Source: Candidatus Woesearchaeota archaeon
Lineage (GTDB): Archaea > Nanobdellota > Nanobdellia > Woesearchaeales > SKGA01
Assembly: GCA_046546105.1 (NCBI GenBank)
Contig: JBKGYN010000002.1
Location: 10,913-74,912 of the forward strand
Direction of reading: 5' to 3'
Length of the DNA: 64,000 nt
This document shows, piece by piece, positions 3,898 through 58,433 of the stretch (the stretch's first letter is position 1; each line of letters starts with the position of its first letter). The notes beneath the pieces are model-generated. The model was not told the origin of the DNA. It made no database searches and saw only the letters and a program-made list of their open reading frames with translations. Position numbers and translations under genes: made by a program.

Positions 3898-6699
3898 ATG
3901 CAACATTCAACTTTTTTCAAGACTTCGCTTCTTATTCTTGCCCTTGTATTCTCGCTTCTCGCCCTCATTCCGCACGTTCAGGCTCGGGATTCTATTGATG
4001 TGGAGAATCGAAGCGTCAATGCTGATTTTGAGATAAGTGCTTCTTTCAGGACATTGTCCTTATGCGAATGTGCGACCTCCACTCAGAACCTACAGGTCTC
4101 AAACCCTGGCTCTTATCCGATCACAGTCCATCTCGAGAGCGAGAATGGCTATGTCCGTTTCGCGCAGAGTGAAGTTCAGGTAGATCCTGGTCGTACCGAA
4201 ACGGTCATCGCCTACATCAAAGCGCCGTGTGACGCCCCTGACAAGGACACTATCCTTATCAAGGCGACATCTTCTCTTGGTAAGACCAAAGCTTTCACTC
4301 AAGATATCGAATTTTCCAACTGCCAGAACCTTCGTGCTGGTCTTGCTGAACGTGAAGTCAACGCGAGCGTCTGCCAACCATTCTCCACCTCCTTGACCGT
4401 CAAGAACACTGGTTCTTTCAGGGAGACTTACGAGATTGCTGCTGCTGATTTCTCCGACTCTATCGTCTTGAGTGAAGACCGAGTGACTCTTGATTCTGGT
4501 CAGACTAAGGATGTTTTCATCTATTATAACCTGCCTTGTGACATCTACGGGGAGCATGATGCTGACTTTATCGTCCGTGCTGTGAAGAACAATCGCAAAG
4601 CTACTTTGAAGCAGACAATCAACATCCCTCAAGACTATGCATTCTCACTTGATCTTCCATCGCAGATGCCTGTTTGCCAGGAAGATGAAAAATCGGACGC
4701 TTTCCGGTTTGCCTTTACAAACGACAATAATTTCACCGACACATACCGGATAAAGGAGGATCTTCCTTCCTTCGCTGATGATGATCTTCCTCTTGTCGGG
4801 AGATTTTTTCCTGAGACTGTCACTTTGAAGCCTGGCGAGGATTATGTGAAAAACATCTCGCTCTCCTCTCTCGATGACGTCGATGAAGGAACGTATCCGG
4901 TTTCGTTCACCGTGACTTCTCGAAACGGTGACGTGACAAAGACTGCCGCTGGTAACATCTCTGTCTCTGATTGTCATGGCGGGGCGCTGTCTTTCTCTGA
5001 CACGACCGACAAGCTCTACGCCTGCGCTCGAGATGACTTCTCGAAAGAGTTCACGATCGCTAACACGGGTTCTCAAGATAGTGATTACGAACTGCTCTTG
5101 AACGCGCCTGATTTCATGACATTACCTGCTGACAAGCTCTCTCTCGATGCTGGTGAGAACGAGTCTGAAGAGATGGGGCTTGTCATTCCTGATAACATCT
5201 CTATGGAATATCCTATTACCTTGGAGCTTTACGGTAAAGGAGGTCTGCTTGACACTGCTGGATTCACGCTCGTTGTCGATGATCGTGAAGAGTGTTACGG
5301 CGTCGGGCTTGACGATACCTCTCAGGACATGCTCTATACCAGTGATAACATCACCTTCAAGGTGACCAATGATGGTACTCGCCATGGCATCTACACTCTT
5401 GACATCCTCAACGCTTCTGGCGTTCTCGATCTCAGTGCTGGCGAGCTTGGTCTCGGCGCTACGGAGACAAAGACTCTCAATATCATTGTCGATAAGGACG
5501 AGCTGAAAAACGCTACTGCTTCTGATAGCGATCTCATCGGCACTGTTGTCGAAAAGACCTTGATGGTCACTCACGAGCAGTCCGGTCTTGTCACCTACGT
5601 CCCTGTCACTATCGAGATTGTTGATCATTCCATTTGGCACAAGGCGTGGTCATACCTCGCTTCACTGCCTGCCTGTACGCTCATATTCCTTTCCTTGGCG
5701 CTTATCTTTGTCATCTCGCTATTTATTCTTGCCCTGCGCTTGGCTTCCGCGAATCGGTTCTTCGCCGCTCGCTGGCAGGTCCTTCTCTGGGGTTTGGCCC
5801 TTGTCATCGTTGCCTTTGCAATAGTCAGTATCATCTATGGCTTTCCTGGGCAAAGCACTTTTTACACGCAATACAACCTGACCACTGACAGCCTCAATCA
5901 CGTCTTGATGGTCGAGGACAGTTCTTATACTTTCGATTATGATGAGTACTTCTTCGATCCTGACGATAACATCGAGACCTACGGTGTTCGTGATGTCAAC
6001 GAATCCATCCTTTCATTCAGCATCAACGGTTCTAACCTCACCATTACTCCTGTCGAGGATTGGTATGGTGCTACGGATATCGAGCTATTCGTCGTTGACG
6101 AGTACAACGAGAGCGCCTCAAGCGGTCCTGTCCTTGTTGAAGTCCTTCCTCGCGAGGATCACACCGTCGTGAGCTTTTTCAATGCCGGTTGTGAGTACTT
6201 CAACGTCGCGATGCTGCTTCTCGTCATCATCGTGATCTTTTTTGCCCTTTCCCTTCCGAAACGTCCTGTGAGCGCTTCCCGGAAAAAAGCTTCTGGGTCG
6301 CGGCGTATCACTGCATCGCGGACTCTCTCCAAGCGCAGGAAACGCTCTGTTAACAAGAAGTCTTCCAAGAAGACGAGTAATGCTTCCTCTTCAAAGAAAT
6401 CCTCTGGCAAGAATGCTAAGAAGAAAACATCGGGTTCGACTAAGAAGTCGTCTTCAAAGAAGACTGTGAGAAAATCTTCTGCAAAGACTTCGAAAACATC
6501 TTCGAGCAAGAAGACCGGCGCTAAGAAATCACCCTCAACAAAAGCGGCTGTTTCTGGAGCTGTTGGAAAATCGTCTTCCGAACCTGATTCAGAGAATTCT
6601 TCCGCTCAACAAGAGAGTGGCAAACAGGACTCTGCAAAGAGAACCTCTGGCGAGAGACCGGAGCAAGCGCTTGATGACGATCGCAACCAGGCTTCTTGA
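3898..6699 (+). CDS. large surface protein with CARDB/DUF11-like repeats, two TM segments and a Lys/Ser-rich basic C-terminal tail
   Basis: 933-aa ORF preceded by a GGGGGACGGG run; signal peptide; recurring N(P/T)GS / KNTGS / ANTGSQ / TNDGT motifs typical of CARDB-like beta-sandwich repeats; TM segments around aa 580-640 and 770-790; C-terminal about 130 aa almost only K/S/T/R (KKSSKKTSNASSSKKSSGKNAKKKTSGSTKKSSSKK...). Confidence 0.7.
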   Translation: MQHSTFFKTSLLILALVFSLLALIPHVQARDSIDVENRSVNADFEISASFRTLSLCECATSTQNLQVSNPGSYPITVHLESENGYVRFAQSEVQVDPGRTETVIAYIKAPCDAPDKDTILIKATSSLGKTKAFTQDIEFSNCQNLRAGLAEREVNASVCQPFSTSLTVKNTGSFRETYEIAAADFSDSIVLSEDRVTLDSGQTKDVFIYYNLPCDIYGEHDADFIVRAVKNNRKATLKQTINIPQDYAFSLDLPSQMPVCQEDEKSDAFRFAFTNDNNFTDTYRIKEDLPSFADDDLPLVGRFFPETVTLKPGEDYVKNISLSSLDDVDEGTYPVSFTVTSRNGDVTKTAAGNISVSDCHGGALSFSDTTDKLYACARDDFSKEFTIANTGSQDSDYELLLNAPDFMTLPADKLSLDAGENESEEMGLVIPDNISMEYPITLELYGKGGLLDTAGFTLVVDDREECYGVGLDDTSQDMLYTSDNITFKVTNDGTRHGIYTLDILNASGVLDLSAGELGLGATETKTLNIIVDKDELKNATASDSDLIGTVVEKTLMVTHEQSGLVTYVPVTIEIVDHSIWHKAWSYLASLPACTLIFLSLALIFVISLFILALRLASANRFFAARWQVLLWGLALVIVAFAIVSIIYGFPGQSTFYTQYNLTTDSLNHVLMVEDSSYTFDYDEYFFDPDDNIETYGVRDVNESILSFSINGSNLTITPVEDWYGATDIELFVVDEYNESASSGPVLVEVLPREDHTVVSFFNAGCEYFNVAMLLLVIIVIFFALSLPKRPVSASRKKASGSRRITASRTLSKRRKRSVNKKSSKKTSNASSSKKSSGKNAKKKTSGSTKKSSSKKTVRKSSAKTSKTSSSKKTGAKKSPSTKAAVSGAVGKSSSEPDSENSSAQQESGKQDSAKRTSGERPEQALDDDRNQAS

Positions 6700-8943: not shown

Positions 8944-9115
8944 GAGAGGGTGCCAACACTTTTGTGTTGAGCATGTTCAAATACCAGCTACTTTTCAAGA
9001 AGAACCTGGGGACGCTGGGATTCCCTTGAACTTTGTGAGAGGGTGCCAACACTTTTGTGTTGAGCATGTTCAAATACCAGCTACTTTTCAAGAAGAACCT
9101 GGGGACGCTGGGATT
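8944..9115. repeat. tandem direct repeat (93-bp period, 79-bp perfect copies at 8944-9022 and 9037-9115), each ending with the 3'-terminal 15 nt of tRNA-Trp
   Basis: The 79-bp string gagagggtgccaacacttttgtgttgagcatgttcaaataccagctacttttcaagaagaacctggggacgctgggatt occurs twice with identical spelling; copy 2 overlaps the tRNA-Trp 3' end; a third copy of ggggacgctgggattcc lies at about 8851-8867. Confidence 0.85.
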
Positions 9116-9235
9116 TGAACCCAGATCAGCCGGTATCTTCTGAATAGATTGATAATCATCGCCTTCATAGCCATGAAGACTCATCGCTCCATCCAACTGG
9201 AGCCGGCTATTCTGCCGGATTATACTACGCCCCCG
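9101..9235 (-). tRNA. tRNA-Trp (anticodon CCA) with an approximately 61-nt intron after position 37
   Basis: Minus-strand read: acceptor GGGGGCG/CGTCCCC, T8A9, T-arm CTGGG-TTCAAAT-CCCAG, anticodon stem GCCGG/CCGGC with loop CTCCAG interrupted by an insert; the intron start TTGGATGGAGC pairs back onto GCTCCA, as expected for a bulge-helix-bulge splice site. Coordinates within 1-2 nt. Confidence 0.7.
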
Positions 9236-14808: not shown

Positions 14809-16017
14809 TTACTCGGTCGCTACACTGATGTTCTCATCAAGAACAACGGTCTGGTTCTCCATAGCGCCGTTCATGGTATTATTTTCAGCGATCGCATCCT
14901 TATTCTTGTACGTGATTGTCGCATTCTCGCGTAGTTTACTCACATACTCGTCGTAGATTGCTGTAGCTCTCTCCTGGCTGAGTTGTTGCCTGATCGCCGT
15001 TCTCACAGGCGTTTGTTCTCCTTCTTGATCGCTTGTCATGTCATCCAGATCGAGATATCCCGCTTCGGACTCGTTTCTTTTCAGGATGACGTGGTATCCG
15101 AACTGTGACTTGACGACTTGCCTCTCGCCGATATCCATCTCGAAGCTCGCGTTCTCGAACGCAGGGTCCATGCGATCTCTTGAGAATGTGTATTCGCCGC
15201 AATCTTCTTTGCTGCCCAGATCCATGCTGTAGTTTCTCACTAGTGTGCAGAAGTTGCTGTTATTAGTTTCATCGAGCTGTGCGCTGATATTTTCTGCCAG
15301 AGCTTCTGCTTTTGCATCTGTTGTCTGATTGTTGACCTCGATAAGGATGTGTCTGACTGTGACTTGCTGTTCCCTGTAGAACTGGTCCCTGTTATTCTCA
15401 TAATACTCCTCGACTTCTTCATCAGTCACATTCACTTCGCTCGTGTTGAGCTGGTCGAAGAGTTTCGCGATCGTCAGTTGTTTCTGGTATGTCAAGAGGA
15501 TATCCTCGTATGAAAGCCCTTGCATCTCCAGCTGCTGCTTGAACTCTTCCATGCTTCGTCCTGCCTGGGTGAGTTGTTGATTGACAAACCCTTCGGCTTC
15601 CTGTGATGTCGTTTCAAGCCCTTTCTCTTCGGCCTTGTTCAGGAGAAGCTGCTGGTTGACTATATCTTCAAGCAGTGCATCTTTTCCAACCTGTAGTTTC
15701 ACGTTCGGCGGGAGCGTGTTCCACTGCTTGTTGAACTCTTCCTCCGTGATCGTCTCGCCATCGACCGTGGCAAGTACGGTTTCATTATCTCCTGCCATCG
15801 TATCTTCGCTTGAGAAGATATTCTGGAGTGATGGTGTGAGTGCTAGTACTGCAATGACCGCTACGATGACTGTAAGGCCGATGATAGACCATGCCTTCTT
15901 GTCAGAGACTGTTTTTTTCTTCTTCGTTCTGTATGTGTCATGCTTCTTTCCTTCATAGACCTTTTTCGCTGTCTTCGAATGTGTTTTTTTCGTTGTCATG
16001 TGTTTCATCCTCATCAT
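14809..16017 (-). CDS. membrane-anchored parvulin-type peptidyl-prolyl isomerase (SurA/PrsA-like)
   Basis: Basic N-terminal tail, one TM (IIGLTVIVAVIAVLAL), SurA-N-like region, parvulin core (VTVRHILIEV ... FGYHVILKRNE). Confidence 0.65.
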   Translation of the reverse strand: MMRMKHMTTKKTHSKTAKKVYEGKKHDTYRTKKKKTVSDKKAWSIIGLTVIVAVIAVLALTPSLQNIFSSEDTMAGDNETVLATVDGETITEEEFNKQWNTLPPNVKLQVGKDALLEDIVNQQLLLNKAEEKGLETTSQEAEGFVNQQLTQAGRSMEEFKQQLEMQGLSYEDILLTYQKQLTIAKLFDQLNTSEVNVTDEEVEEYYENNRDQFYREQQVTVRHILIEVNNQTTDAKAEALAENISAQLDETNNSNFCTLVRNYSMDLGSKEDCGEYTFSRDRMDPAFENASFEMDIGERQVVKSQFGYHVILKRNESEAGYLDLDDMTSDQEGEQTPVRTAIRQQLSQERATAIYDEYVSKLRENATITYKNKDAIAENNTMNGAMENQTVVLDENISVATE

Positions 16018-16214
16018 ATGATGATATTAAGGATCCTTCGTTGCCATAGTCCCTGCAGGAGATCTGTTGCGACTTTGCAGGGGATACTGACACTTTCACT
16101 GGGTGCTTCTTCCTTATTTAAGTTTTGTTATTTCTGGTCTTCGGTGCCCACTTGTTATTGTATTGTGTTTGCAGCACAATGTTTTTAAATACCTCTCACT
16201 GCAGACAACCTCAT

Positions 16215-18812
16215 ATGGAAGATATTGTTGTAGGGCGCAGTAAATCTGACTTGAAAAAATACGGGATGAAAGGCGCTATCTTCGTTGGTAAGCATTACAT
16301 CTCTATGGGTACCACTACAACGCTTTCTAACAATGTATATATGGACGTTGCCGGCGCTCACGTCGTTTTCATCTGCGGCAAGCGTGGCGGCGGAAAATGT
16401 CTGACTGGCGATACTCTTATCTCTCTTGCTGACGGTCGGGAAGTCCCTATTGCAGATCTTGAGCACATCGACCAGGATATTGTCGCTCTGAACGATGATT
16501 TGAAAGTGCAGCATGCTGGCAAGACTGAGTTTTTCAAACGCGAAGTCTCGAAATTACTCAACATCCGGCTACGTAGTGGCAAGGAATTGCGTTTAACGCC
16601 GGAACATCCTTTACTGACCGTTTCAGGTTGGAATGAAGCATCTGCTTTGAAAGAAGGCTCGCGTATAGCGACTCCTCGAAAATTGCCTTCATTTGGAGAA
16701 CACGACCTTCCTGAAAACGAAGTGAAAATCCTTGCTTATTTGCTTGCTGAAGGGCACTTATCCAATGGGTTTATCCTGTTCTCGAATACTGATTCGCTTA
16801 TCATGGCTGATTTCAGGAGCGCTCTTCAATCTTTTGACGCATCCTTAGATGTTAAACAGCATGGTGAAGGGTGTGTTCGGGTCATATCTTCTGGTGTGAG
16901 ACGAACAATTGTGAACTCCTCACGTAACGAAAAGGGACAATTCGGTAAAGGAGTCGTTTTCGATAAGAAATCTTCATTGCGCAAATATCTCGAGAGTGCA
17001 GGATTATATGGGTACAAGGCAGATCAACGGGTTCTTCCTGATCGTATCTTCCAGTTGCCCAAGCGCAAACTGGCATTATTCCTCAATCGTCTTTTTAGCT
17101 GTGATGGTACTATCTATCGTGATGGTAACAAGGACTCTTGGATAGTGAGCTATTCTTCAGCTTCTAAGAAGATGATCTATCAGATTCAGAATCTGTTATT
17201 GAAATTCGGTTTGCTTTCCCGCGTTCGTAAGAAGCAACAGAACGGGTTTACCAGTTATGAACTGGGTCTTCATGAAATCCATGTCCATTGGTTCCTTCAG
17301 GAAATTGGTTTTTTCGCTGATAAGAAACATCGCCAAGAACAAGCTCTTCGCAGCACTAAACAGCATAATCCTAATATTGATACGATTCCTCGAGAAATCT
17401 GGGACACGTATCGTCCGAAAAATTGGTCTGAAGTGGGTAAAGAACTCGGTTATAAGACTCCTAAATCTGCACGATCCTCGATCAGGCATTCTCCCTCTCG
17501 CCAGAAACTCGCTTGTATAGCGCGGTCAGATGGTAGTGTTGAAACAGGATTGCTTGCCGAATCCGATATCTTCTGGGATGAGATTGTTGACATCACTGAA
17601 GAGAACGGTACGTTCACCGTATATGATATCAGTGTTCCCGAGCATCATAATTTTGTTGCAAATGGCGTTATCGTCCATAACAGCTACACGATGGGTGTTA
17701 TCGCTGAAGGCTTTCACCTTCTTGAAAAGGCTATCAAGGAGAATCTTTCTGTCATCCTTCTGGACACGATGGGTATCTATTGGACGATGAAATACCCGAA
17801 CCACCAGGATAAAGAGCTTCTTGAAAAATGGGGTCTCAAGCCGCAATCGATTCCTGTCAAGATCTTCACGCCGGAGAAATACTATCACATCTACAAGAAG
17901 CAAGGCATTCCTACTGACGTTCCGTTCACGATGAATCCTGCAGACCTGGATCCTGACGATTGGTGTAATGCCTTCAGGGTCGATAAGTACAGCTCCCGAG
18001 GCATCCTCATCAACCGGACCATCCTTGATCTCAAGAAATCCGGTGAGAACTTCCAGATTCACGATATCATCAAGCGTATCAAGGAAGATCAGGATTCTGA
18101 GAAAGAGGATCGTGACGCTGTCATTTCCATGTTTCTCATGGCTGATAATTGGGGTGTCTTCTCGGAGCACGGCACGCCCCTTCACGAACTGGCTAAAGGC
18201 GGCCAGATCACCGTGCTTGACGTTTCCTGCTACGCGACCATGCCTGGTGGTTGGGATGTCAAATCGCTCATGGTAGGCCTTGTCGGTCAGCGTCTGTTCA
18301 TCGAGAGGATGGAATACCGTAAGGGCGAGGAATATGAGTCTGTCAGCAGCGCCACTAACTTCTTCAGTTCAGATGCTAAGAAAACGCAGGACATGCCTCT
18401 GGTGTGGCTTGTTATTGACGAGGCTCATGAATTCCTTCCTCGAAACGGTAAGGTCGCTTCTACCGATGCCCTTGTCACGATCATGCGCGAAGGTCGTCAG
18501 CCGGGTATTTCCCTCATTCTCGCGACCCAGCAGCCCGGTAAGATCCACACGGATGTCATGACGCAGTCTGACACTGTCCTCTCTCACCGGATCACTGCGA
18601 AGATGGATGTTGATGCTCTCGGGATGCTCATGCAGTCCTACATGCGTGAAGGCTTGACTGGTGAGCTTGACAAGCTTCCTCGTGAAAAAGGTGCTGGTGT
18701 GCTTTTCGATGATAATAATGAGAAGATGTATCCTATCAGGATTCGCCCTCGTTTCACCTGGCACGGAGGTTCGAGCCCTACAGCCGTCCCGGAGGATAAA
18801 GAAGAGCGATGA
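16215..18812 (+). CDS. HerA/FtsK-superfamily (DUF87-like) ATPase interrupted by an intein in the P-loop
   Basis: ORF 16125..18812 with probable ATG at 16215; extein Walker A GKRGGGK|S is split by the intein; Walker B VWLVIDEAHEF; LILATQQPGKIH (HerA/VirB4-type TQxP motif). Extein about 467 aa. Confidence 0.75.
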   Translation: MEDIVVGRSKSDLKKYGMKGAIFVGKHYISMGTTTTLSNNVYMDVAGAHVVFICGKRGGGKCLTGDTLISLADGREVPIADLEHIDQDIVALNDDLKVQHAGKTEFFKREVSKLLNIRLRSGKELRLTPEHPLLTVSGWNEASALKEGSRIATPRKLPSFGEHDLPENEVKILAYLLAEGHLSNGFILFSNTDSLIMADFRSALQSFDASLDVKQHGEGCVRVISSGVRRTIVNSSRNEKGQFGKGVVFDKKSSLRKYLESAGLYGYKADQRVLPDRIFQLPKRKLALFLNRLFSCDGTIYRDGNKDSWIVSYSSASKKMIYQIQNLLLKFGLLSRVRKKQQNGFTSYELGLHEIHVHWFLQEIGFFADKKHRQEQALRSTKQHNPNIDTIPREIWDTYRPKNWSEVGKELGYKTPKSARSSIRHSPSRQKLACIARSDGSVETGLLAESDIFWDEIVDITEENGTFTVYDISVPEHHNFVANGVIVHNSYTMGVIAEGFHLLEKAIKENLSVILLDTMGIYWTMKYPNHQDKELLEKWGLKPQSIPVKIFTPEKYYHIYKKQGIPTDVPFTMNPADLDPDDWCNAFRVDKYSSRGILINRTILDLKKSGENFQIHDIIKRIKEDQDSEKEDRDAVISMFLMADNWGVFSEHGTPLHELAKGGQITVLDVSCYATMPGGWDVKSLMVGLVGQRLFIERMEYRKGEEYESVSSATNFFSSDAKKTQDMPLVWLVIDEAHEFLPRNGKVASTDALVTIMREGRQPGISLILATQQPGKIHTDVMTQSDTVLSHRITAKMDVDALGMLMQSYMREGLTGELDKLPREKGAGVLFDDNNEKMYPIRIRPRFTWHGGSSPTAVPEDKEER
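16398..17681 (+). mobile_element. intein (Hint domain with LAGLIDADG homing-endonuclease domain), 428 aa
   Basis: Begins Cys (CLTGDTLISLADGREV) immediately after GGGK and ends VHN followed by Ser (+1 nucleophile); two LAGLIDADG-like motifs (LAYLLAEGHL, LNRLFSCDGTIY) in the middle. Confidence 0.75.
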
Positions 18813-32631: not shown

Positions 32632-34590
32632 ATGGTGGTCCGGGCTAATTTCAGAACTCTTGTCTTATTGCTTGTTTTCCTGCTTAGTGTGCAGACTGGC
32701 TTTATAGTCTATCACGCGGTTGAAGTCATCTCGCCTGATATTCATGCCCGGGCGAGCGCGGGTATGTTCTCGCTATGTCTCAACTATCAGCCTGAATTCA
32801 ACTTCACCTGCAACACTTCTATGCGCCAGAACCATGATTATCATTGCCAGCTCAATTATTCTGACCCTGACAATGATTCTGTAACTTTTTTCTATGAGAA
32901 CCTCTCTGGATTTTTTGAAGCTGAGATCACCGATGATGGTGTCCTGACTGCAAATCCTGATCAGGAGATGGTAGGTGAGAGGGACGTGCTCATCGGTGTA
33001 GTTGATGAGAAGAATTGCTCAAACAGTGAAGCTGCTGAAAACGTGACTTTCGAGATTGAAAATGTCAACGACCCTCCTGAATACTATCGTCAGATAAGTG
33101 ATCTCGAATGGTCTCTTGACGAGACTTTCAGGGGTATCTTTCTCAAGGATTATTTCAGGGATCCCGATGGTGACCCGCTCTCCTACTCGCATTCTTTCTC
33201 ATCATCACAGTTTTCTGCCGACATCATATCCAGTTCTGAAGTTATTTTTTCCGCTGATGAGTGTGGCGAGGGTTATGTGACCTTCACTGCGTCAGATCCA
33301 TATAATGAGACTGCGCAAAGCCATATCATCAAAATCAATGTTCCTTGCGAGGAGCCTGAATCTTCATCCGGCGGTTCTGCCGGATCTACTTCCCCTGAAG
33401 AGTGCATTCCGGAATGGCGGTGCAAGGATTGGAGCGAGTGCTATCCTAACGGCACGCAAAAACGGCAATGTACAGATATCCATGGTTGTAGTGAGGATTA
33501 CAAGCGGAATTTCTGGAGGGAGTGCGAATACATTCCTCAATGTGAAAACGGTATTCAGGATCCTGACGAAGAAGGTGTTGATTGCGGTGGTCCTTGTCCT
33601 CCTTGTGAGACATGCGATGATGGTATCCTGAATAACCAAGAGGAAGAAGTCGATTGCGGCGGTCCGAACTGCCCTCCTTGTAAGAATTGTTCTGATGGTA
33701 TTCAGAACTATGGTGAGACTGGTGTTGATTGCGGTGGTCCTTGTCCTCCTTGTGAGACATGTGATGATGGTATCCAGAATCAGGGCGAGACTGGTGTTGA
33801 TTGCGGTGGTCCTTGTCCTCCTTGTCCTGATACTGAGACTCCCGCGCCTGTTGATGATCGTTCGTGGCTCACTGCAGTCCTCATCCCTATAGTGCTTGGT
33901 CTCACGGGCCTTGCTGTCATTTACCGGCTGTTCCGGAGGAGTATTCACGCTTTTGCTGCGAGGATGTGGTGGTATTTCACCAGTAAGGTGCCCAAACAGG
34001 TGCTTCTCACGGAAAATCAGAAGTCGTATTTGTTCAACGAACTTGATCGACTTCTTGGTGAGCAGCATGGCTCTTCTGACCTGGACGAATTCCAGGATGA
34101 TCTGGCTATCCTTTTCAGGAAGTTCTACTCATATCTGATTGATGAAGCCTATGATCTTGAAAATGCCAAAGAGAAGATCGTGCAGTTGAAGACGGTCAAG
34201 GAAGTGAAAAAATTCCTCGTCACGGGATACTCTGTCACGCTTGGTATTGAAAAGACCAAGAAGATGTCTCGGGAGATGCTTGATGTCCATGCTGAACTCC
34301 TGCGTGAGCTTGTGATTTCTCTAAGTAGGGTTGATCGTGAAGAGATTGCAAGAGTTCTTGATGAAAAGACTCCTGCTGAAAAACCAACGCTCTCTAACGT
34401 GCTTGGCTTCTTGTATAACAGCATTCTTGCCTTGCAGTTCAGCGAGATCGAGATCTCCAAAGAGAAATATCTTAAAGCCTTGTATCTCTATGAAGCCCTT
34501 CCTGTAAGTGATCAGGAGAACGTGTATTCGACGCTTCATCTGACATTCGGTCTTATCAGCTACGTCTCATCTTACGCTTCCAAGAAATGA
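32632..34590 (+). CDS. cell-surface protein: cadherin-like domain, four Cys-rich tandem repeats (CGGPCPPC), TM helix, cytoplasmic alpha-helical domain
   Basis: Signal peptide; VNDPPEY cadherin-like motif; 4 x about 31-aa units C-x2-C-x-DGI-x-N-x-(G/E)E-x-(G/E)VDCGGP(N)CPPC; TM LTAVLIPIVLGLTGLAVIY; about 220-aa cytoplasmic tail. Confidence 0.65.
   Translation: MVVRANFRTLVLLLVFLLSVQTGFIVYHAVEVISPDIHARASAGMFSLCLNYQPEFNFTCNTSMRQNHDYHCQLNYSDPDNDSVTFFYENLSGFFEAEITDDGVLTANPDQEMVGERDVLIGVVDEKNCSNSEAAENVTFEIENVNDPPEYYRQISDLEWSLDETFRGIFLKDYFRDPDGDPLSYSHSFSSSQFSADIISSSEVIFSADECGEGYVTFTASDPYNETAQSHIIKINVPCEEPESSSGGSAGSTSPEECIPEWRCKDWSECYPNGTQKRQCTDIHGCSEDYKRNFWRECEYIPQCENGIQDPDEEGVDCGGPCPPCETCDDGILNNQEEEVDCGGPNCPPCKNCSDGIQNYGETGVDCGGPCPPCETCDDGIQNQGETGVDCGGPCPPCPDTETPAPVDDRSWLTAVLIPIVLGLTGLAVIYRLFRRSIHAFAARMWWYFTSKVPKQVLLTENQKSYLFNELDRLLGEQHGSSDLDEFQDDLAILFRKFYSYLIDEAYDLENAKEKIVQLKTVKEVKKFLVTGYSVTLGIEKTKKMSREMLDVHAELLRELVISLSRVDREEIARVLDEKTPAEKPTLSNVLGFLYNSILALQFSEIEISKEKYLKALYLYEALPVSDQENVYSTLHLTFGLISYVSSYASKK
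33560..33840. repeat. near-identical approximately 93-bp tandem repeats (4 units) encoding the Cys-rich modules
   Basis: gttgattgcggtggtccttgtcctccttgtgagacatg(c/t)gatgatggtatcc recurs; units 3 and 4 are almost identical at the nucleotide level. Confidence 0.8.
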
Positions 34591-42678: not shown

Positions 42679-43743
42679 TTAAGAATTTTTTGTTTTCAAT
42701 TCTTTGGACTTCCCTCTCAAGCCCTCGACGAAATCGCTGAAATTCTCACTCGGGATGACAGCTCCGCATGCGTGTTCGTGACCGCCGCCTGTGCCTTCGA
42801 CTTCTTCAAGCACTCTAGACAGGATCTTGTCGACCGGCAACGCGTTGCTTCGTAGCGAGCATTTATAGCTACCATTACTCTGCCTGGCGATAAGGATGAG
42901 CTTTTCCGGCTGCTCATACAATAGCTCGTTTGACAGGTCTGTCGTGTAGGAATTCCTGTCGTCGGTGTAAGTGAATAGGAGTAGTGGATCCTCTGCATTG
43001 ACATCCACGCTCTCCTTGATTTTCTGGTATTCTGCCAGGTGTTTCTCGTAGCGTTTCATCACGAGTCGTGCTTGCGCATTCTTCTTTTCGAATAAATCAT
43101 TTGGATTGTCAATACGTGTCAATATCTTCATCGATGACAGCACGTCTGTCGTTTTGCCTTTGAGGTTGAATGAGAAAATGCGTGCCAGCTCTCCGACTTT
43201 CGTTTCAAAGAGTGCCTTAGCAGGATTATCGACATCCGCTGGCAGGTAGCCGGGATATTCTTTTCTGAAACGATCAAGTATTTCCTTTTCCGGCAGCTGC
43301 CAATCTGATACGATGCCTACTACTGTCTGCCAGAGATCTTTTCCTGAGAGCTTGTGGGCGTAATGGCTTGTTGCTATATTGCGTTCTGCATCTTCCTTTC
43401 TCGGATTGAGATAGGTCACGCCTTTACGCTTCTTGACTTCGTGATGATCGACCCACACTACCTCGGATCTGATCTTATCGATGAATTCCTGTGAGACTTC
43501 TGCCTTGTCAAGGATGACTACCAGATCAGGAAAATAATTGTTGACTTTCTCTACCATACGCTCATCAATCACTGATCCCTTGAGCGGCAGGCCTTTACCT
43601 GCGCGCACCATCCTGTAGAGTATGAGAAATGATGCGAGACCGTCAGGATCGTCGTCAAAAAGAAATATCGGCCGTGCACACTGTTCGAGTTTCTGCCTGA
43701 TGAGTTTGATATCCTGTTCTTCTGTCACTGTGGCTCCCTTCAC
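42679..43743 (-). CDS. DHH-DHHA1 phosphoesterase (archaeal RecJ-like/GAN- or nanoRNase-like)
   Basis: FDDDPDG (motif I), VWVDHHEV (DHH motif), C-terminal DHHA1 GGGHEHACG. Confidence 0.75.
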   Translation of the reverse strand: MKGATVTEEQDIKLIRQKLEQCARPIFLFDDDPDGLASFLILYRMVRAGKGLPLKGSVIDERMVEKVNNYFPDLVVILDKAEVSQEFIDKIRSEVVWVDHHEVKKRKGVTYLNPRKEDAERNIATSHYAHKLSGKDLWQTVVGIVSDWQLPEKEILDRFRKEYPGYLPADVDNPAKALFETKVGELARIFSFNLKGKTTDVLSSMKILTRIDNPNDLFEKKNAQARLVMKRYEKHLAEYQKIKESVDVNAEDPLLLFTYTDDRNSYTTDLSNELLYEQPEKLILIARQSNGSYKCSLRSNALPVDKILSRVLEEVEGTGGGHEHACGAVIPSENFSDFVEGLRGKSKELKTKNS

Positions 43744-44444
43744 TTCCCTTTACAATCATCACATCCTTTTTGCTTCTCTACATGCGTGTGTCTGATTTCG
43801 GTCTTATATGCATCGACTTTGAGAAGCGTTTCCTCGTTCTCGATATTGAGCAGGTTCTTGAGTGCTGCATTCGCTGCCAGTCCTGCCAGGAGTGTTGTGG
43901 TCGGGCTGTATATGCCTGTCTTCTTGAGCTTTCCGAGATCGAAATTTTTTTCAAGGCATTTGATACAAGGTCCTTTCTTGTGCTGTTTCTTGTCAACAAC
44001 AAGAAGGTGTCCTTTCGTGCCGGCATAATTGACCGTGATAAGAGGGGTCTTGTTTTCGAGCGCGTATCTGTTGACAAGAAGCGCTGTTTTCATGTTGTTG
44101 CTTGCGTCGATGATGACGTCCGCTCCAAGAAGAAAGAGATTGTCTTCGTGGAGTTCTTCGTGGAATGTTTTGATTTTTACATTCCTGGTGATTTCTTCAA
44201 GGCGTTTTTTTGCCTGTTTCGCTTTGAATTTACCGATATCTTCTCGTGTGTAGAGTGTTTGCCTCGGGACCTCTTCCTCATATACTCGTTCCTTGTCCAC
44301 GATCCGGAGGTTTATGTTGTTTCTGGCGAGTTGTTCTGCGACAGTCGATCCTACTCCGCCAAGGCCTACGATCGCCACAGTCTTGTTTTTCAGCTCATCT
44401 ATTTTCTCTTCATCTGCGATTCCTGCCAGTTTCATCATTTTCAT
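43740..44444 (-). CDS. E1-like ThiF/MoeB/UbaA family adenylyltransferase
   Basis: Nucleotide-binding VAIVGLGGVGS, catalytic-Cys region, C-terminal paired CxxC (CIKC ... CDDC); overlaps the DHH gene by 4 nt (ATGA). Confidence 0.75.
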   Translation of the reverse strand: MKMMKLAGIADEEKIDELKNKTVAIVGLGGVGSTVAEQLARNNINLRIVDKERVYEEEVPRQTLYTREDIGKFKAKQAKKRLEEITRNVKIKTFHEELHEDNLFLLGADVIIDASNNMKTALLVNRYALENKTPLITVNYAGTKGHLLVVDKKQHKKGPCIKCLEKNFDLGKLKKTGIYSPTTTLLAGLAANAALKNLLNIENEETLLKVDAYKTEIRHTHVEKQKGCDDCKGK

Positions 44445-44598: not shown

Positions 44599-47500
44599 GT
44601 GATAGCGCTATGTTCAGGTGGTTGGTGTCTTTTGAGGGTGTATTATAAAAGTATAACTGTTTTTGTGGCTGTCTTATTGACCTTGTCATTAGCGGTCGCT
44701 ATCTCCTTCTCTACACAGCCTCACACTTCTCCTGATAATGTCACTGTCGATACTTCCTTTGACTGCGAATTCACGCCTGATGCTGACGGTCTTGCTAATG
44801 TCACTTGGTATGTCAAACGCGATAGTGGCTCTTGGGAACACTGGACTGCCGATGATATCTCCGAACAGTCTGTTGATGCAGGTGAAACAACTTCTGTTTC
44901 TGCTTCAAACGCAGCGTCAAACACGTCTAAACACGAAAATTGGCTTTGTGAAGTGACCTTGTATAACGCTACAGATAGTGTCACTTCGAATTCGACCGAT
45001 AATGTGACGATTATCAACTCTTTGCCGGACATATCCTATCCTGAATCATCCGTTGTCATAGAGCATGAAGAAGACGAACCGTACTCCGAGTATGCTGAAG
45101 CGAGTGATCCTGATGGTGATGATATTGTATGGACTTACGCTTACGGATCTCACGAGCCCATTGATTCGAGTTATAGCTCTGACCCCTTTGATTTCTCTAT
45201 TGATCCTGATTCCGGTTTGATGAGTTTTGAGGTCACTAATGAATCTCAGGCGGGTAACCATACTGTTGATATTATTGCAAAAGATAATAGTGGTGATGGT
45301 CGCGTTCGTACTGTCGTCTTTGATGTCAGTCCTGTCAATGACTCTCCTGAATTCGGAACGCTTGAATTCGATTGTGAAGAATACTCGGAATGTTCAGGAA
45401 CCATTCCGGCAACAGATGAGGAAGGTGATAGTATAACTTATTACAGCAATATCTCCTCGTTCATCAACCTCTCAAGCGAGTCCGGCGAGTATTCCTTCAC
45501 CCCGACCCGTGAAGATGTTGGTATCCTGCCTGCCACGTTCAACATCACTGATGGGGGTCAGATGGTTTCGAGTACTGGTTTTTTCAACATCTCCGCTACA
45601 AACCTCGCTCCTGAGTTGTCTATTATCCGCAACTCCTCCCTTTTGCAGAACGAGACTTCTGAACCGTTCGTTTTCATTGTCAATGCGTCTGACCCTGATG
45701 CTAATGACACGCTTTCCTTTTCTGTCTCGACATCTTGCGGTCTCAATCCTTGGAATATCACAAAGACTGTTTCTCATAACGCTACCTCTGACGCTCAAGG
45801 GCTCATCAACGTCTCTTTTTTCGATCCTGCAACCTGGAATGAGCAGACTTCTTCCTCAAACGATTTTGTTGCTTGCCGTAATGTTTCACTCACTGTTTCA
45901 GATGGCTTGCTCTCTGACACGTTGAATGTCACATTCAATATCACGAACACCAATGACGCACCTGTCATCTTCAACCAGAGCCATTATGCGTCAAATGGCG
46001 AGCAGACTGATATCCACAACCTCAGCGGTGCGAAAGGATTATCTTTTGATTACCGTGTCAATGCGTCTGATCCTGATATGGCTACTTATGAGAATGATTC
46101 TCTCACATTCTCGATTTCAGGCGCTAACGCTTCATTGTTTTCCATTGATCCTTCAACCGGTATGATCAACTCTGATGAACTCAATGCCAGCGGCAACCTA
46201 TCTTTTAACGTGACAGTCACGGACCTTAACGGTCTCAACTATACTGAAACTGCCAACATATCTGTCATTGATAATAATCCTCCTGTTATCGAATCACTTG
46301 ATAACGGTTCGTGCAATGAGACTATCCCTTGTCTCAAATTTCTCAATGCCACCGACCAGGAAAATGATAATCTCACGTATCATGCTTTGAACATGTCGCA
46401 CTTCTCACCAAACGGTACGCTTACAGAACATGTTTCAGGAGTTGCTGATATTAATGATGCTTTCGGCATCCGTATCGCTTATCACAATTTCACGACCGGC
46501 CTTCCTGAAGGTGCTCTGACTTCCTACCTTCTCAACTTCACGCCTGAAGATGTTGATGTTGGTCATTATAACCTGACATTCTCATTTGAGGATGAGCTGG
46601 GCATCACTGATACGGCAGAGCTCGTATTCAATGTCACCAACCACAACGATGCCCCTCTCCTCAATACCTCCTCTCTTGAAGATGCTGTTATCGTCGAGGA
46701 CGTGCCATTCTCGCAAAATGTCACTGCGTCCGATCCTGACCTCACTTATGATCTTGATAATCTGTCTTTCAGTTTCAACTTCACGAACTCTTCTGATAAC
46801 ATATCATCATATTCTTTTTCAAAGACCAATGAATCTGCTGCACGGTTCTCGTTCCTTCCTAATAACACTCACATAGGCAATCACACAGTCAATATCACGG
46901 TCACTGACACCTATAACGTGACTGATAATCATATTTTCAACATCACGGTTCATGAAGCGACCCGTCCTCCGAATATCACGCAGGTACGCCCTTATTACGA
47001 TGCTATTCTCAACACCACCAACACTTCCTCTTATGACGATCCTGAAAATGATGGTGTGAGTGAGATCGATGCCCGTGAGAATCAGACTATGCGTTTCGAT
47101 ATCGATGCTACTGACGAGGATCCCATGACGATAACTTGGTACCATAATGGTTCAGAAGTCGCTGAAGGATCTTATTCAGGTCCGGGTTCTTATCCGTTGG
47201 ATGTCACGTTCGGTTTTTTTGATAATGGGACTCACAATATCACTGCTGTTGTTGAGGATATGTACTATTCCTCTTCCCGATATGACTGGATTGTCTCCGT
47301 CGAGGATGTGAATCGGGATCCTCTCTTTCTCAATCCGATAGAGGATTATTCCTTTGAGAACAACAAATCTCTCAGTGGCTATGCGAAAATCTTTGATTTT
47401 TTCAGGCAGCGCTCTGATGACATCGTCTTTCTCGATCCTGATGATGACTATAACTCCAACTTGAAATTGGATGATGAAGAGACGAACACGCTTTCCTTTT

Positions 47501-48450
47501 CAGCCGAAGATAACAGTAGTTGTGTCGATTATCTCTCTTTCGAGTTCGACGGTGGCGATGTCAGTATGACGCCTGAAGCGGTAGGTACATGTTATACTCG
47601 CTTCATTGCTACTGACCGCGATGGTGCCAAAGCCTATTCCAATAAGGTTCGCTTTGACATAACTGATGTTGAGGATTCTTCAAGCAGTTCCTCTACTTCA
47701 AGTTCCTCTTCTGGTTCTCAGACCGTGCAGCAGACAATCACCATTCCTCTTGAAGAGGAAGTTGATGTCCCTGAAGCTTTCGAGCTTATCATTCCTGGCA
47801 TTGCTTCTATCTATGAGAATGGTACTGTCGTCATCCCTCTTCATCTCAAGAATTCCTGGGAAGACTCGCTTGAATCTATCACGTTGAGCGCGAACGCTTC
47901 CTTTGAAGAGGATGTCGAATTCACCTTTTCACAGGATACTATTGATTCTATTCCTGAAGGCGGCAGTGTCGATGTCAATCTTACGATGTCGGATTATCGC
48001 TTTGAAGGACCGTTTGAAGTGAATGTCAGCGGTCATATCCAATCTCTTGATCACACTGACACGGCGACTATTTATGTTAACGCTCTTGAGAAAGCGCATG
48101 AGGATGTTGATGCAGTCAAGTCTCGTATCGGTTTTGCACGTGATCTCTTGAGTGAGAACTCTGAATGTCAGGAACTCAATGAGTTGCTTGATGAAGCTGA
48201 GGAGAAATCTTCTTCGGAAACGGTTAATTCTCTCGAGATGGTGAACAATGTCGTTAAAGGTTGTAAATATCTTATTAACAATGAGAAGAAACAGCCTTCT
48301 TCAGAAACCCCTAAGTCTTTTATGGGTCGGCTCGGCACGTATGGTGATGCTGCTTTTGATTTCAACAATCTCGGTACTGTGCTTGGTATCTTGTTCTTTG
48401 CAGCTTTTGTCATAGGGATTTTTACAGTTGTCACTTTGAAACGGATCTGA
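44599..48450 (+). CDS. giant (1283 aa) cell-surface protein made of cadherin-like repeats with C-terminal TM anchor
   Basis: Signal peptide; at least 8 repeats ending in x-N-D-(A/S)-P motifs (VSPVNDSPEF, ITNTNDAPVIF, VTNHNDAPLLN, VIDNNPPVIE, DVNRDPLF); many NxS/T sequons; poly-Ser linker; C-terminal LGTVLGILFFAAFVIGIFTVV; start codon uncertain (GTG 44599 or TTG/GTG about 35 nt downstream). Confidence 0.7.
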   Translation: MIALCSGGWCLLRVYYKSITVFVAVLLTLSLAVAISFSTQPHTSPDNVTVDTSFDCEFTPDADGLANVTWYVKRDSGSWEHWTADDISEQSVDAGETTSVSASNAASNTSKHENWLCEVTLYNATDSVTSNSTDNVTIINSLPDISYPESSVVIEHEEDEPYSEYAEASDPDGDDIVWTYAYGSHEPIDSSYSSDPFDFSIDPDSGLMSFEVTNESQAGNHTVDIIAKDNSGDGRVRTVVFDVSPVNDSPEFGTLEFDCEEYSECSGTIPATDEEGDSITYYSNISSFINLSSESGEYSFTPTREDVGILPATFNITDGGQMVSSTGFFNISATNLAPELSIIRNSSLLQNETSEPFVFIVNASDPDANDTLSFSVSTSCGLNPWNITKTVSHNATSDAQGLINVSFFDPATWNEQTSSSNDFVACRNVSLTVSDGLLSDTLNVTFNITNTNDAPVIFNQSHYASNGEQTDIHNLSGAKGLSFDYRVNASDPDMATYENDSLTFSISGANASLFSIDPSTGMINSDELNASGNLSFNVTVTDLNGLNYTETANISVIDNNPPVIESLDNGSCNETIPCLKFLNATDQENDNLTYHALNMSHFSPNGTLTEHVSGVADINDAFGIRIAYHNFTTGLPEGALTSYLLNFTPEDVDVGHYNLTFSFEDELGITDTAELVFNVTNHNDAPLLNTSSLEDAVIVEDVPFSQNVTASDPDLTYDLDNLSFSFNFTNSSDNISSYSFSKTNESAARFSFLPNNTHIGNHTVNITVTDTYNVTDNHIFNITVHEATRPPNITQVRPYYDAILNTTNTSSYDDPENDGVSEIDARENQTMRFDIDATDEDPMTITWYHNGSEVAEGSYSGPGSYPLDVTFGFFDNGTHNITAVVEDMYYSSSRYDWIVSVEDVNRDPLFLNPIEDYSFENNKSLSGYAKIFDFFRQRSDDIVFLDPDDDYNSNLKLDDEETNTLSFSAEDNSSCVDYLSFEFDGGDVSMTPEAVGTCYTRFIATDRDGAKAYSNKVRFDITDVEDSSSSSSTSSSSSGSQTVQQTITIPLEEEVDVPEAFELIIPGIASIYENGTVVIPLHLKNSWEDSLESITLSANASFEEDVEFTFSQDTIDSIPEGGSVDVNLTMSDYRFEGPFEVNVSGHIQSLDHTDTATIYVNALEKAHEDVDAVKSRIGFARDLLSENSECQELNELLDEAEEKSSSETVNSLEMVNNVVKGCKYLINNEKKQPSSETPKSFMGRLGTYGDAAFDFNNLGTVLGILFFAAFVIGIFTVVTLKRI

Positions 48451-57956: not shown

Positions 57957-58433
57957 TTCGTTGCGTTGAGTGGTTTTCGGGTTTTTTGAAAGTTTTTAAG
58001 GTTCTCTTTTTAGATTTTGATTTGTTTTTGTCGTTTTTTAGAGTTTTTTGTTTGTAATGGAGTTTTTATGATTGTTTAAAAACTTAAAATAGTCTTTTTT
58101 AGTTTAAAGAAGATTAAATAAGTTTTATTTTGTGTTATGGATTTTTGAAGTTCTTAATTCATTGTATATAACTATTTTCTTTCGTATAGAAACGTTTATA
58201 AATACCAGTGGTTGAATTTGTTGTATAACGTTGTGTGTGAGGTGTATTACTGATAATTCCTACAAAAGAAGAGTTTCTGGATTTTCTGAAAGATAACCCT
58301 CATCAGACATACACCTCTATTTCTAAGCATTTTGACATTGAGATGGGCACGGTGCGTGATCTAGTCCGGTTTTATGGTGACGAGCTCAAGATCCGAAAGA
58401 TAGGGACTGCATTGATGGTGGACGTGAAAGAAT

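Follow-up and report, generated by a model that had tools for sequence, protein, structure and literature searches.

A LAGLIDADG intein within the Walker A motif of a short HerA-like ATPase from a woesearchaeal genome

The window analyzed here is a 64,000-nucleotide (nt) stretch of the genome of a Candidatus Woesearchaeota archaeon (assembly GCA_046546105.1, contig JBKGYN010000002.1, positions 10,913 to 74,912 of the forward strand). We concentrated on one of its genes, which encodes a HerA-like P-loop ATPase interrupted by an intein. The open reading frame (ORF) runs without interruption from 16125 to 18812 on the forward strand and would yield 895 amino acids (aa) if read from the TTG at 16125. 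This start was discarded: orthologues begin with MEDIVVGR, and a TATA-like box is found 33 nt before the ATG at 16215. This ATG is the orthologue-type start (MEDIVVGRSK, with an N-terminus of the same type in the intein-less orthologues P0001 and L003). Read from there, the precursor counts 865 aa (16215-18812), of which residues 62 to 489 form the intein (Table 1). The intein opens with CLTGDTLI and ends with VIVHN, followed by Ser; it lies between K61 and S62 of Walker A, i.e. GKRGGGK/S, where the slash marks the insertion point, as in all sequences below. Its excision in silico joins GKRGGGK to SYTMGV and restores the motif GKRGGGKS. On the resulting 437-aa protein, the Pfam family DUF87 (PF01935, HerA central domain) matches with an E-value of 1.1e-11 and 45.7 bits, for a gathering threshold of 23.2, and this match rises above the cut-off only once the intein has been removed. 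The presence of an intein-split HerA-like ATPase gene is confirmed, far beyond chance.

A preliminary description of the locus had placed a LAGLIDADG intein in the P-loop of a HerA/FtsK-superfamily ATPase, precisely at the junction of GGGK with S. Both the coordinates and the junction proved exact (ORF, Pfam and empty orthologues), and the DUF87 match in the spliced protein bears out the nature of the host. The large C-terminal extension mentioned in the same description is not retained, in view of the alignment of the family and of the lengths of the homologues: the 376 aa that follow the intein are the rest of the ATPase domain, with Walker B, sensor and C-terminal motifs, and the 437-aa extein is shorter than HerA. 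It is shorter because it has no HAS barrel, and the atypical part of the protein is its N-terminus.

Table 1. Features of the ATPase precursor gene and its divergent neighbour (positions in the window; A2, alignment of the intein with its relatives, see text)
Feature	Position	Strand	Description
Membrane-anchored SurA/PpiC-type peptidyl-prolyl isomerase	14809..16017	-	Pfam Rotamase_3 (3e-20) and SurA_N; divergent from the ATPase gene
TATA-like element TTTTTAAATA	16182..16191	+	AT-rich; candidate archaeal promoter (by sequence inspection), 33 nt before the ATG
N-extein, 61 aa	16215..16397	+	Short beta-rich N-terminal region and first part of Walker A (GKRGGGK)
Intein, 428 aa	16398..17681	+	Hint splicing domain with an inserted LAGLIDADG homing-endonuclease domain (Pfam, structure model, Foldseek, empty orthologues)
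Block A CLTGDTLISLADG	16398..16436	+	Cys1 nucleophile, nearly invariant in A2
Block B KELRLTPEHPLLTV	16581..16622	+	T67-P-E-H70 (T-x-x-H); H70 invariant and T67 nearly so in A2
LAGLIDADG motif 1 VKILAYLLAEGHLS	16722..16763	+	ILAYLLAEG; predicted catalytic Glu118; G119 invariant in A2
LAGLIDADG motif 2 LALFLNRLFSCDGTI	17070..17114	+	LNRLFSCDG; predicted catalytic Asp236; D236 and G237 invariant in A2; Pfam LAGLIDADG_3
Blocks F and G (DIFWDEIV...HHNFVANGVIVHN)	17565..17681	+	D394 and H417 invariant, penultimate His427 and terminal Asn428 nearly invariant in A2
C-extein, 376 aa and stop codon	17682..18812	+	Opens with the +1 Ser completing Walker A; rest of the RecA-like ATPase core
Walker B VIDEAH	18411..18428	+	Extein residues 305-310
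Family-signature motifs REGRQPG ... QQPGKIH	18486..18548	+	Invariant across the host family
C-terminal family motif RPRFTWHGG	18744..18770	+	Counterpart RPRxSxHAG in relatives encoded in Asgard ESCRT clusters

The two domains of the intein were recognized by independent profiles. Pfam Intein_splicing covers residues 69-489 of the precursor (1.9e-27, 96 bits for a cut-off of 35.8) and LAGLIDADG_3 covers residues 286-365 (7.2e-18), while the NCBIfam models intein_Nterm and intein_Cterm match at 8e-13 and 8.7e-9, respectively. Conservation was assessed on an alignment of the window intein with 42 relatives (A2, 43 sequences). The residues of blocks A, B, F and G, whose possible lack in blocks A and G had been envisaged in the preliminary description, are all present. 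The sequence displays the attributes of a class-1 intein: Cys1, the T-x-x-H motif, H427-N428 followed by Ser at position +1, a Hint fold, and an empty orthologous site. Both LAGLIDADG helices end with an acidic residue and a glycine (E118-G119 and D236-G237). The AlphaFold2 (AF2) model built on A2 has a mean predicted local distance difference test (pLDDT) score of 93.9 and contains no low-confidence segment. Compared with the PDB by Foldseek, this model is closest to the intein TliVMA (7qss), with a template modelling (TM) score of 0.73, and PhoVMA, PI-PfuI (1dq3), PI-TkoII (2cw7) and PI-SceI (1vde) are also matched. It shares with TliVMA, PI-PfuI, PI-TkoII and PI-SceI the two-domain architecture of Hint and LAGLIDADG, whereas sequence identity to them is only 10-18% and their hosts (V-ATPase, ribonucleotide reductase, PolB) and target sites are different.

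By sequence, the splicing domain is nearest to DnaB inteins, such as the Ssp DnaB mini-intein (PDB 1mi8) and 6frg (both about 3e-19), and the NCBIfam model NF005852 scores 240 bits over the whole intein. The Ser at +1 is common to both; however, identity to bacterial DnaB inteins is 27-30% over the full length and the host protein is a different one. The closest full-length relatives of the window intein are only 47-59% identical to it. We noted that the Joint Genome Institute (JGI) annotation names intein-bearing relatives (e.g. P0270, P0273, P0283 and P0289) "replicative DNA helicase", a misannotation due to the resemblance of the intein to DnaB inteins; many of these entries are truncated gene calls on short contigs.

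These residues allow a course of events to be proposed. The P-loop of the precursor is broken, and the ATPase would bind no nucleotide until the intein leaves. Following established intein chemistry, Cys1 would attack the K61-C1 peptide bond (N-S acyl shift), the N-extein would move onto the side chain of Ser+1, and Asn428, helped by His427, would cyclise and free the intein. An O-to-N shift would then produce a normal K61-S62 bond and rebuild the Walker A motif GKRGGGKS. Judging from the LAGLIDADG family, the freed intein would cut empty alleles at ...GGCGGCGGAAAA/AGCTACACGATGG..., and repair would copy the intein in. We conclude that this intein can very probably splice, and that its homing is plausible.

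Empty sites were found close to the window gene. Two syntenic orthologues, L003 and L002, whose exteins are respectively 94.1% and 88% identical to that of the window, are uninterrupted: the intein is absent to the base and the flanking residues are identical. Over the 30 codons that flank the insertion point, the differences between the window and these two genes are almost all synonymous; the empty site of L003 reads TTCATCTGCGGAAAGCGTGGAGGGGGAAAG/AGCTACACTATGGGTGTCATCGCTGAAGGC. Three further lineages contain 90%-identity clusters in which intein-plus and intein-minus alleles are mixed, with exteins 94.5%, 92.3% and 90.5% identical. The coexistence of both alleles at 90-95% extein identity suggests ongoing mobility. 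The intein is sparsely distributed: it is carried by none of the 120 best extein homologues (out of more than 5,800), and by a single one of the 80 best species-level genomes, L014, in which the extein is 74% and the intein 59% identical to those of the window. Its G+C content at third codon positions (GC3) is 0.41, compared to 0.58 for the extein and 0.49-0.58 for 15 other genes of the window. GC3 values in L014 are 0.18 for the intein and 0.17 for the extein, so there is no contrast in that genome and the compositional signal is specific to the window copy. Inteins inserted at the same site are about 50% identical to the window intein whether their exteins are 52%, 35% or 24% identical to its extein, a decoupling to be read with the caveat that the comparison used representatives of 50%-identity clusters. 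The last of these values concerns P0148, a P-loop protein of 976 aa whose extein is only 24% identical to the family; its intein, inserted after GDRGGGK, belongs to the lineage of the window intein (50% identical). This case suggests that the intein lineage may jump between unrelated ATPases that have a common P-loop sequence.

The distribution fits a homing cycle that would still be running, with an element moving now or recently. A possible, though unlikely, alternative is that the intein still splices and no longer moves, its endonuclease being inactive and the element a vertically inherited passenger. Such a passenger would agree with the lack of any intein relative found above 59% identity, and the mini-inteins found at the same site in P0139 and P0142, devoid of the endonuclease domain, show that the lineage does decay. 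It agrees poorly with the retention of the acidic LAGLIDADG residues E118 and D236 (the latter invariant in A2) in an endonuclease domain modelled with high confidence, with the departure of the intein GC3 from that of its host, and with the presence/absence polymorphism at 90-95% extein identity, which concerns four lineages.

The host protein was then compared to known ATPases. More than 5,800 intein-less homologues of the extein were found; they count 420-460 aa, are colinear with it and come mostly from Woesearchaeota and other DPANN archaea. For the best 120 of them, length ranges over 435-463 aa and identity over 61-88%. Nanobdellota, Nanoarchaeota or Woesearchaeota are the labels borne by the closest relatives of the gene, and the clade spreads across DPANN (Woesearchaeota, Nanoarchaeia and Nanohaloarchaea; further members bear the labels Diapherotrites and Micrarchaeota). 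The family is not always single-copy, as some Woesearchaeota or Nanoarchaeia have two copies of the short HerA-like gene: L010 and L031 on contig JANQNE010000007.1, L017 and L068 in assembly JABGUJ01. The AF2 model of the spliced protein (pLDDT 80, predicted TM score 0.82) has as best Foldseek matches the archaeal HerA of S. solfataricus (4d2i) and the HerA-NurA complex of T. kodakarensis (9x1l), with E-values of about 1e-11 and TM scores of about 0.53. The RecA-like FtsK/HerA core and the Walker A and B motifs are common to these proteins. Unlike the HerA of the HerA-NurA complex, the window protein is shorter, shows no Pfam match to the HAS barrel at E <= 0.1, and has no NurA, Mre11 or Rad50 neighbour; in the model, the approximately 50 aa that precede Walker A form a short strand, a single helix and a beta-hairpin. 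The HerA equivalog models of NCBIfam score 25-45 bits for cut-offs of 800-970 (e.g. NF040819, 40.1 for 970, and NF040937, 28.4 for 800), and the match to Pfam FtsK_SpoIIIE is not significant (E 0.048). On the strength of DUF87 above threshold and of Walker A and B, the protein is classified as a member of the FtsK/HerA superfamily, outside the characterised HerA families. It is typical of a large, widespread and conserved clade of DPANN ATPases that is unnamed and uncharacterised. Superfamily membership makes a hexameric ring translocase of nucleic acids the most likely form of the mature protein.

Taken as a whole, there is every likelihood that the gene is the precursor of a 437-aa P-loop ATPase of the HerA superfamily carrying a 428-aa bifunctional intein, and that its host belongs to a distinct clade of short HerA-like DPANN proteins, most likely hexameric nucleic-acid translocases. 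Several points weigh against this reading. We infer the activities that it involves, be it splicing, endonuclease cleavage or ATPase and translocase functions. With Ser at +1 and Lys at -1, the efficiency of splicing is not predictable. As the nearest full-length intein relatives are 47-59% identical, a very recent transfer of the window copy would lack direct support. Finally, phmmer similarity to HerA of solved structure is weak (E 6e-9, for some 90 residues surrounding Walker B), so that even DNA as the substrate would follow from superfamily membership.

The gene order around the ATPase is as follows: a YchF-like GTPase, the large subunit of replication factor C (RFC), DnaG, the divergent SurA/PpiC isomerase, the ATPase, a convergent PF01877 RNA-binding protein, PAN, Trm5, Dus and Hel308. 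Archaeal genes are thus represented by the RFC large subunit, DnaG, PAN, Hel308 and Trm5. The PpiC-like gene lies immediately upstream and in divergent orientation in 44 of the 81 orthologous loci, a pairing that may reflect either shared regulation or merely inherited synteny. Other recurrent neighbours in these loci are DnaG, two small unannotated proteins, a class-I tRNA synthetase of the W/Y type, PF01877, NFACT, a RIO kinase, HIT and a presenilin-like peptidase. In 24 further DPANN loci, the upstream position is occupied by a DsbA-like gene, with Trm5 on the downstream side. The ATPase gene sits in conserved chromosomal housekeeping synteny across at least 80 species-level genomes. Among the recurrent neighbours of the 81 orthologous and 24 further loci, there is no nuclease, defence-effector or conjugation gene; NurA, Mre11, Rad50, FtsZ and ESCRT genes (endosomal sorting complex required for transport) were not found among the scanned ORFs of the window, and a six-frame phmmer scan of the window revealed no second intein and no second copy of the ATPase or HerA paralogue. 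The preliminary description had reported that no NurA, Mre11/Rad50, Sir2/DUF4297 or conjugation gene is adjacent, which the window scan and the orthologous loci corroborate. It had also called the ATPase solitary: the term suits its neighbourhood and fails as a description of the protein, since the latter belongs to a nearly universal and highly conserved DPANN family in housekeeping synteny.

The extein could also be the true HerA of this organism, acting in end resection together with NurA and Mre11/Rad50 encoded elsewhere in the genome. We consider this improbable. Archaeal HerA and HerA-NurA complexes are indeed the best structural matches, the top partial NCBIfam matches are HerA models, and replication and repair proteins are favoured by inteins (PMC4760082). 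Nevertheless the equivalog scores remain very far from their cut-offs, as seen above, the HAS barrel is not matched and only about 50 aa precede Walker A; neither NurA nor Mre11 nor Rad50 was found in the scanned window ORFs, among the recurrent neighbours of the 81 orthologous loci or in the 24 further DPANN loci; and the nearest relatives outside DPANN, described below, lie in ESCRT clusters and not in repair operons.

The whole precursor was searched against 1.8 billion representative proteins. Three insertion points were identified in the family, two in the P-loop and one at Walker B. The site after GK of Walker A, which is that of the window, harbours the DnaB-like lineage, mini-inteins derived from it and devoid of the endonuclease domain (168 aa in P0139 and 160 aa in P0142), and a second lineage 28-37% identical. 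The second P-loop site is located three residues earlier, GKRG/SGKS (P0131, P0140 and P0141). The Walker B site follows DE (VDE/C-HEFLP; P0136, P0145, P0122, P0124 and P0138), with a Cys at +1 in place of the usual Ala. Some proteins of the family bear two inteins and reach about 1,300 aa. Inteins are known to cluster within P-loops, as well as within Walker B motifs, of DnaB, MCM and RFC (Novikova et al. 2015, PMC4760082). The window intein resembles the P-loop inteins of that study (DnaB site b, MCM site a, RFC-S site a) by its insertion in Walker A of an oligomeric ATPase, by the frequent LAGLIDADG domain and by the existence of several sites in ATPase motifs; it differs by its host, here a HerA-like DUF87 clade of DPANN archaea. 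The word "HerA" does not occur in the main text of that paper, and our literature search retrieved no paper pairing "intein" with "DUF87" or with this host family. The kind of element, a homing-endonuclease intein in the P-loop of an oligomeric ATPase, is already known; its occurrence in this host family seems to have been undescribed so far. With occupied alleles, empty alleles and mini-intein derivatives of one lineage, the window intein offers a useful and clean natural case.

The position in the P-loop, which guarantees an inactive precursor, raises the question of an intein co-opted as a post-translational switch, whose conditional splicing would gate the ATPase depending on stress or on the redox state. 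Cases of such splicing have been documented among P-loop and ATPase inteins, in DnaB and RadA (PMC8557812, PMC5790916, PMC7360933). Such a co-option is nonetheless quite improbable here, as most orthologues do without the intein and its sporadic distribution fits a selfish element.

That the ATPase belongs to a mobile element or to a defence system (VirB4/TrbE-like, Sir2-HerA, DUF4297-HerA, MADS mad8 or Dnd/Ssp) is hardly credible: against weak partial PADLOC HerA matches (up to 62 bits, with mad8 at 60 bits over the full profile length) and partial PHROGs matches to one unknown and one terminase family stand the housekeeping synteny described above, which is without partner genes and in which the gene is single-copy with the exceptions already noted, a VirB4_plasma score of 20.8 bits for a cut-off of 590, scores of 44.6 for 850 and 30.9 for 800 with the anti-phage HerA models NF042943 and NF042944, the absence of a Sir2 or DUF4297 neighbour, and a conservation of 60-94% in the clade, which is that of a core gene rather than of a defence island. 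The conjugative VirB4/TrbE extein evoked in the preliminary description is likewise set aside, with VirB4-type models at only about 21 bits and chromosomal housekeeping genes as neighbours.

Beyond DPANN, distant relatives of the ATPase with an N-terminal extension of about 270 aa were found in Asgard archaea. The three genes looked up, MHA1652267.1 (Helarchaeota), TFF89564.1 (Lokiarchaeota/Promethearchaeota) and MCF2144362.1 (Heimdallarchaeota/Gerdarchaeota), all lie in ubiquitin-ESCRT clusters and are annotated only as "ATP-binding protein". With X standing for the ATPase relative, their layouts are Vps4 < Snf7 > X > Snf7, or X, one gene, Snf7. A metagenome scan seeded with these three proteins gave 80 loci, whose neighbours were clustered and the representatives checked by Pfam (MIT+AAA+Vps4_C, Snf7 and ESCRT-II). 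Three layouts emerged: X is flanked by two Snf7 genes, and Vps4 lies upstream wherever the contig is long enough, in L084, L085, L087, L088 and L089; the variant X > gene > Snf7 occurs in L086, L091, L092 and L123; a subfamily of about 633 aa shows the order Snf7 > Snf7-like > ESCRT-II > X > Vps4 in L094, L095, L096 and L098, with a variant in L103. In total, 10 loci have X inside an ESCRT arrangement and 4 more have it within two genes of Snf7.

The homology of these proteins to the window extein is clear over residues 2-436, aligned with 31-35% identity and E-values of 1e-64 to 1e-81; the HMMER search score for the homology of the ATPase core to the Asgard clade is 214 bits. The motifs (D/E)DWC, IDEAH and RPRxSxHxG are common to the extein family and the Asgard proteins, as is GR(K/Q)PG in the 900-aa form, and some of them lie outside the generic Walker boxes. 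The Asgard proteins differ from the window protein by an N-terminal extension of about 270 aa or a C-terminal one of about 200 aa, by their Snf7, Vps4 and ESCRT-II flanks, and by the lack of intein in the examples considered. The window protein is a relative of this Asgard ESCRT-cluster clade, an informal grouping with no name in the literature searched, and not a contextual member of it.

From the Asgard gene context, we hypothesize that the family might act with the membrane-scission machinery, either in the clearing of DNA at division or in the loading of nucleic acids into vesicles. FtsK serves as the model for DNA pumping at a membrane neck that is closing. A bolder proposal, speculative and rather unlikely, is that the short HerA-like family would fill the place of FtsK, missing so far in archaea, as a ring translocase that clears or loads nucleic acid at such a neck, working with ESCRT-III/Vps4 in Asgard archaea, the DPANN protein being its minimal core. 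The window protein belongs to the same superfamily as bacterial FtsK/SpoIIIE, and the parallel would concern a possible working mode, not membership; unlike these proteins it has no transmembrane domain, no linker and no gamma domain, which reads KOPS (FtsK orienting polar sequences). Two observations speak against extending the link to the window. No ESCRT or FtsZ neighbour was seen at the DPANN loci, including the window, and the association with ESCRT concerns only Asgard paralogues or orthologues with extra domains. Moreover, a published comparative analysis argues that, where archaea possess the FtsZ machinery as well, their complex ESCRT systems serve vesicle formation and protein sorting, not division (PMC11188069).

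Two published ESCRT surveys are silent on such a gene (PMC9192718, PMC11188069): HerA, FtsK and P-loop are unmentioned in that of Makarova, and in the ESCRT paper of Hatano the word "helicase" is absent and the mentions of ATPases concern Vps4. No FtsK analogue of archaea is named in a 2024 review of their cell cycle (PMC7617429). The HerA-domain protein HVO_1301 of Haloferax is reported to localise to midcell, its deletion having only minor effects (2026 preprint, bioRxiv 10.64898/2026.07.16.738847). A haloarchaeal orthologue was sought with the halophile-like homologue P0146: none of the 120 matches listed is haloarchaeal, and the labelled ones are Nanohaloarchaea.

The host ATPase carries more weight than the intein, being very widespread, highly conserved and unnamed. 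If the link with ESCRT proved functional, it would be a candidate for the motor that moves nucleic acids during membrane scission in archaea and proto-eukaryotes. If the family were in addition the counterpart of FtsK, the repeated invasions of Walker A and Walker B would place it within the network of replication and segregation that inteins favour, and inteins could gate the activity of the ATPase post-translationally in some lineages.

Other features of the window were recorded. A tRNA match of 135 nt on the reverse strand (9100-9234, 42 bits with Rfam), with no ARAGORN call, probably corresponds to an intron-containing archaeal tRNA. At the other end, an open frame on the forward strand (58381-63999) continues past the window edge after at least 1,873 codons, and the G+C content is lower there (0.39-0.42); it encodes a hydrophobic anchor followed by repeats rich in Ser, Asp and Asn, probably in a surface protein of giant size. 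Further large proteins, with Ig-like or Big_9 domains, are encoded at 3898-6699, 32632-34590 and 44599-48450. A DHH/DHHA1 phosphoesterase of the RecJ/GAN type (42679-43743, reverse strand) is followed by a ThiF-type E1-like protein (43740-44444, reverse strand), neither of them linked to the ATPase.

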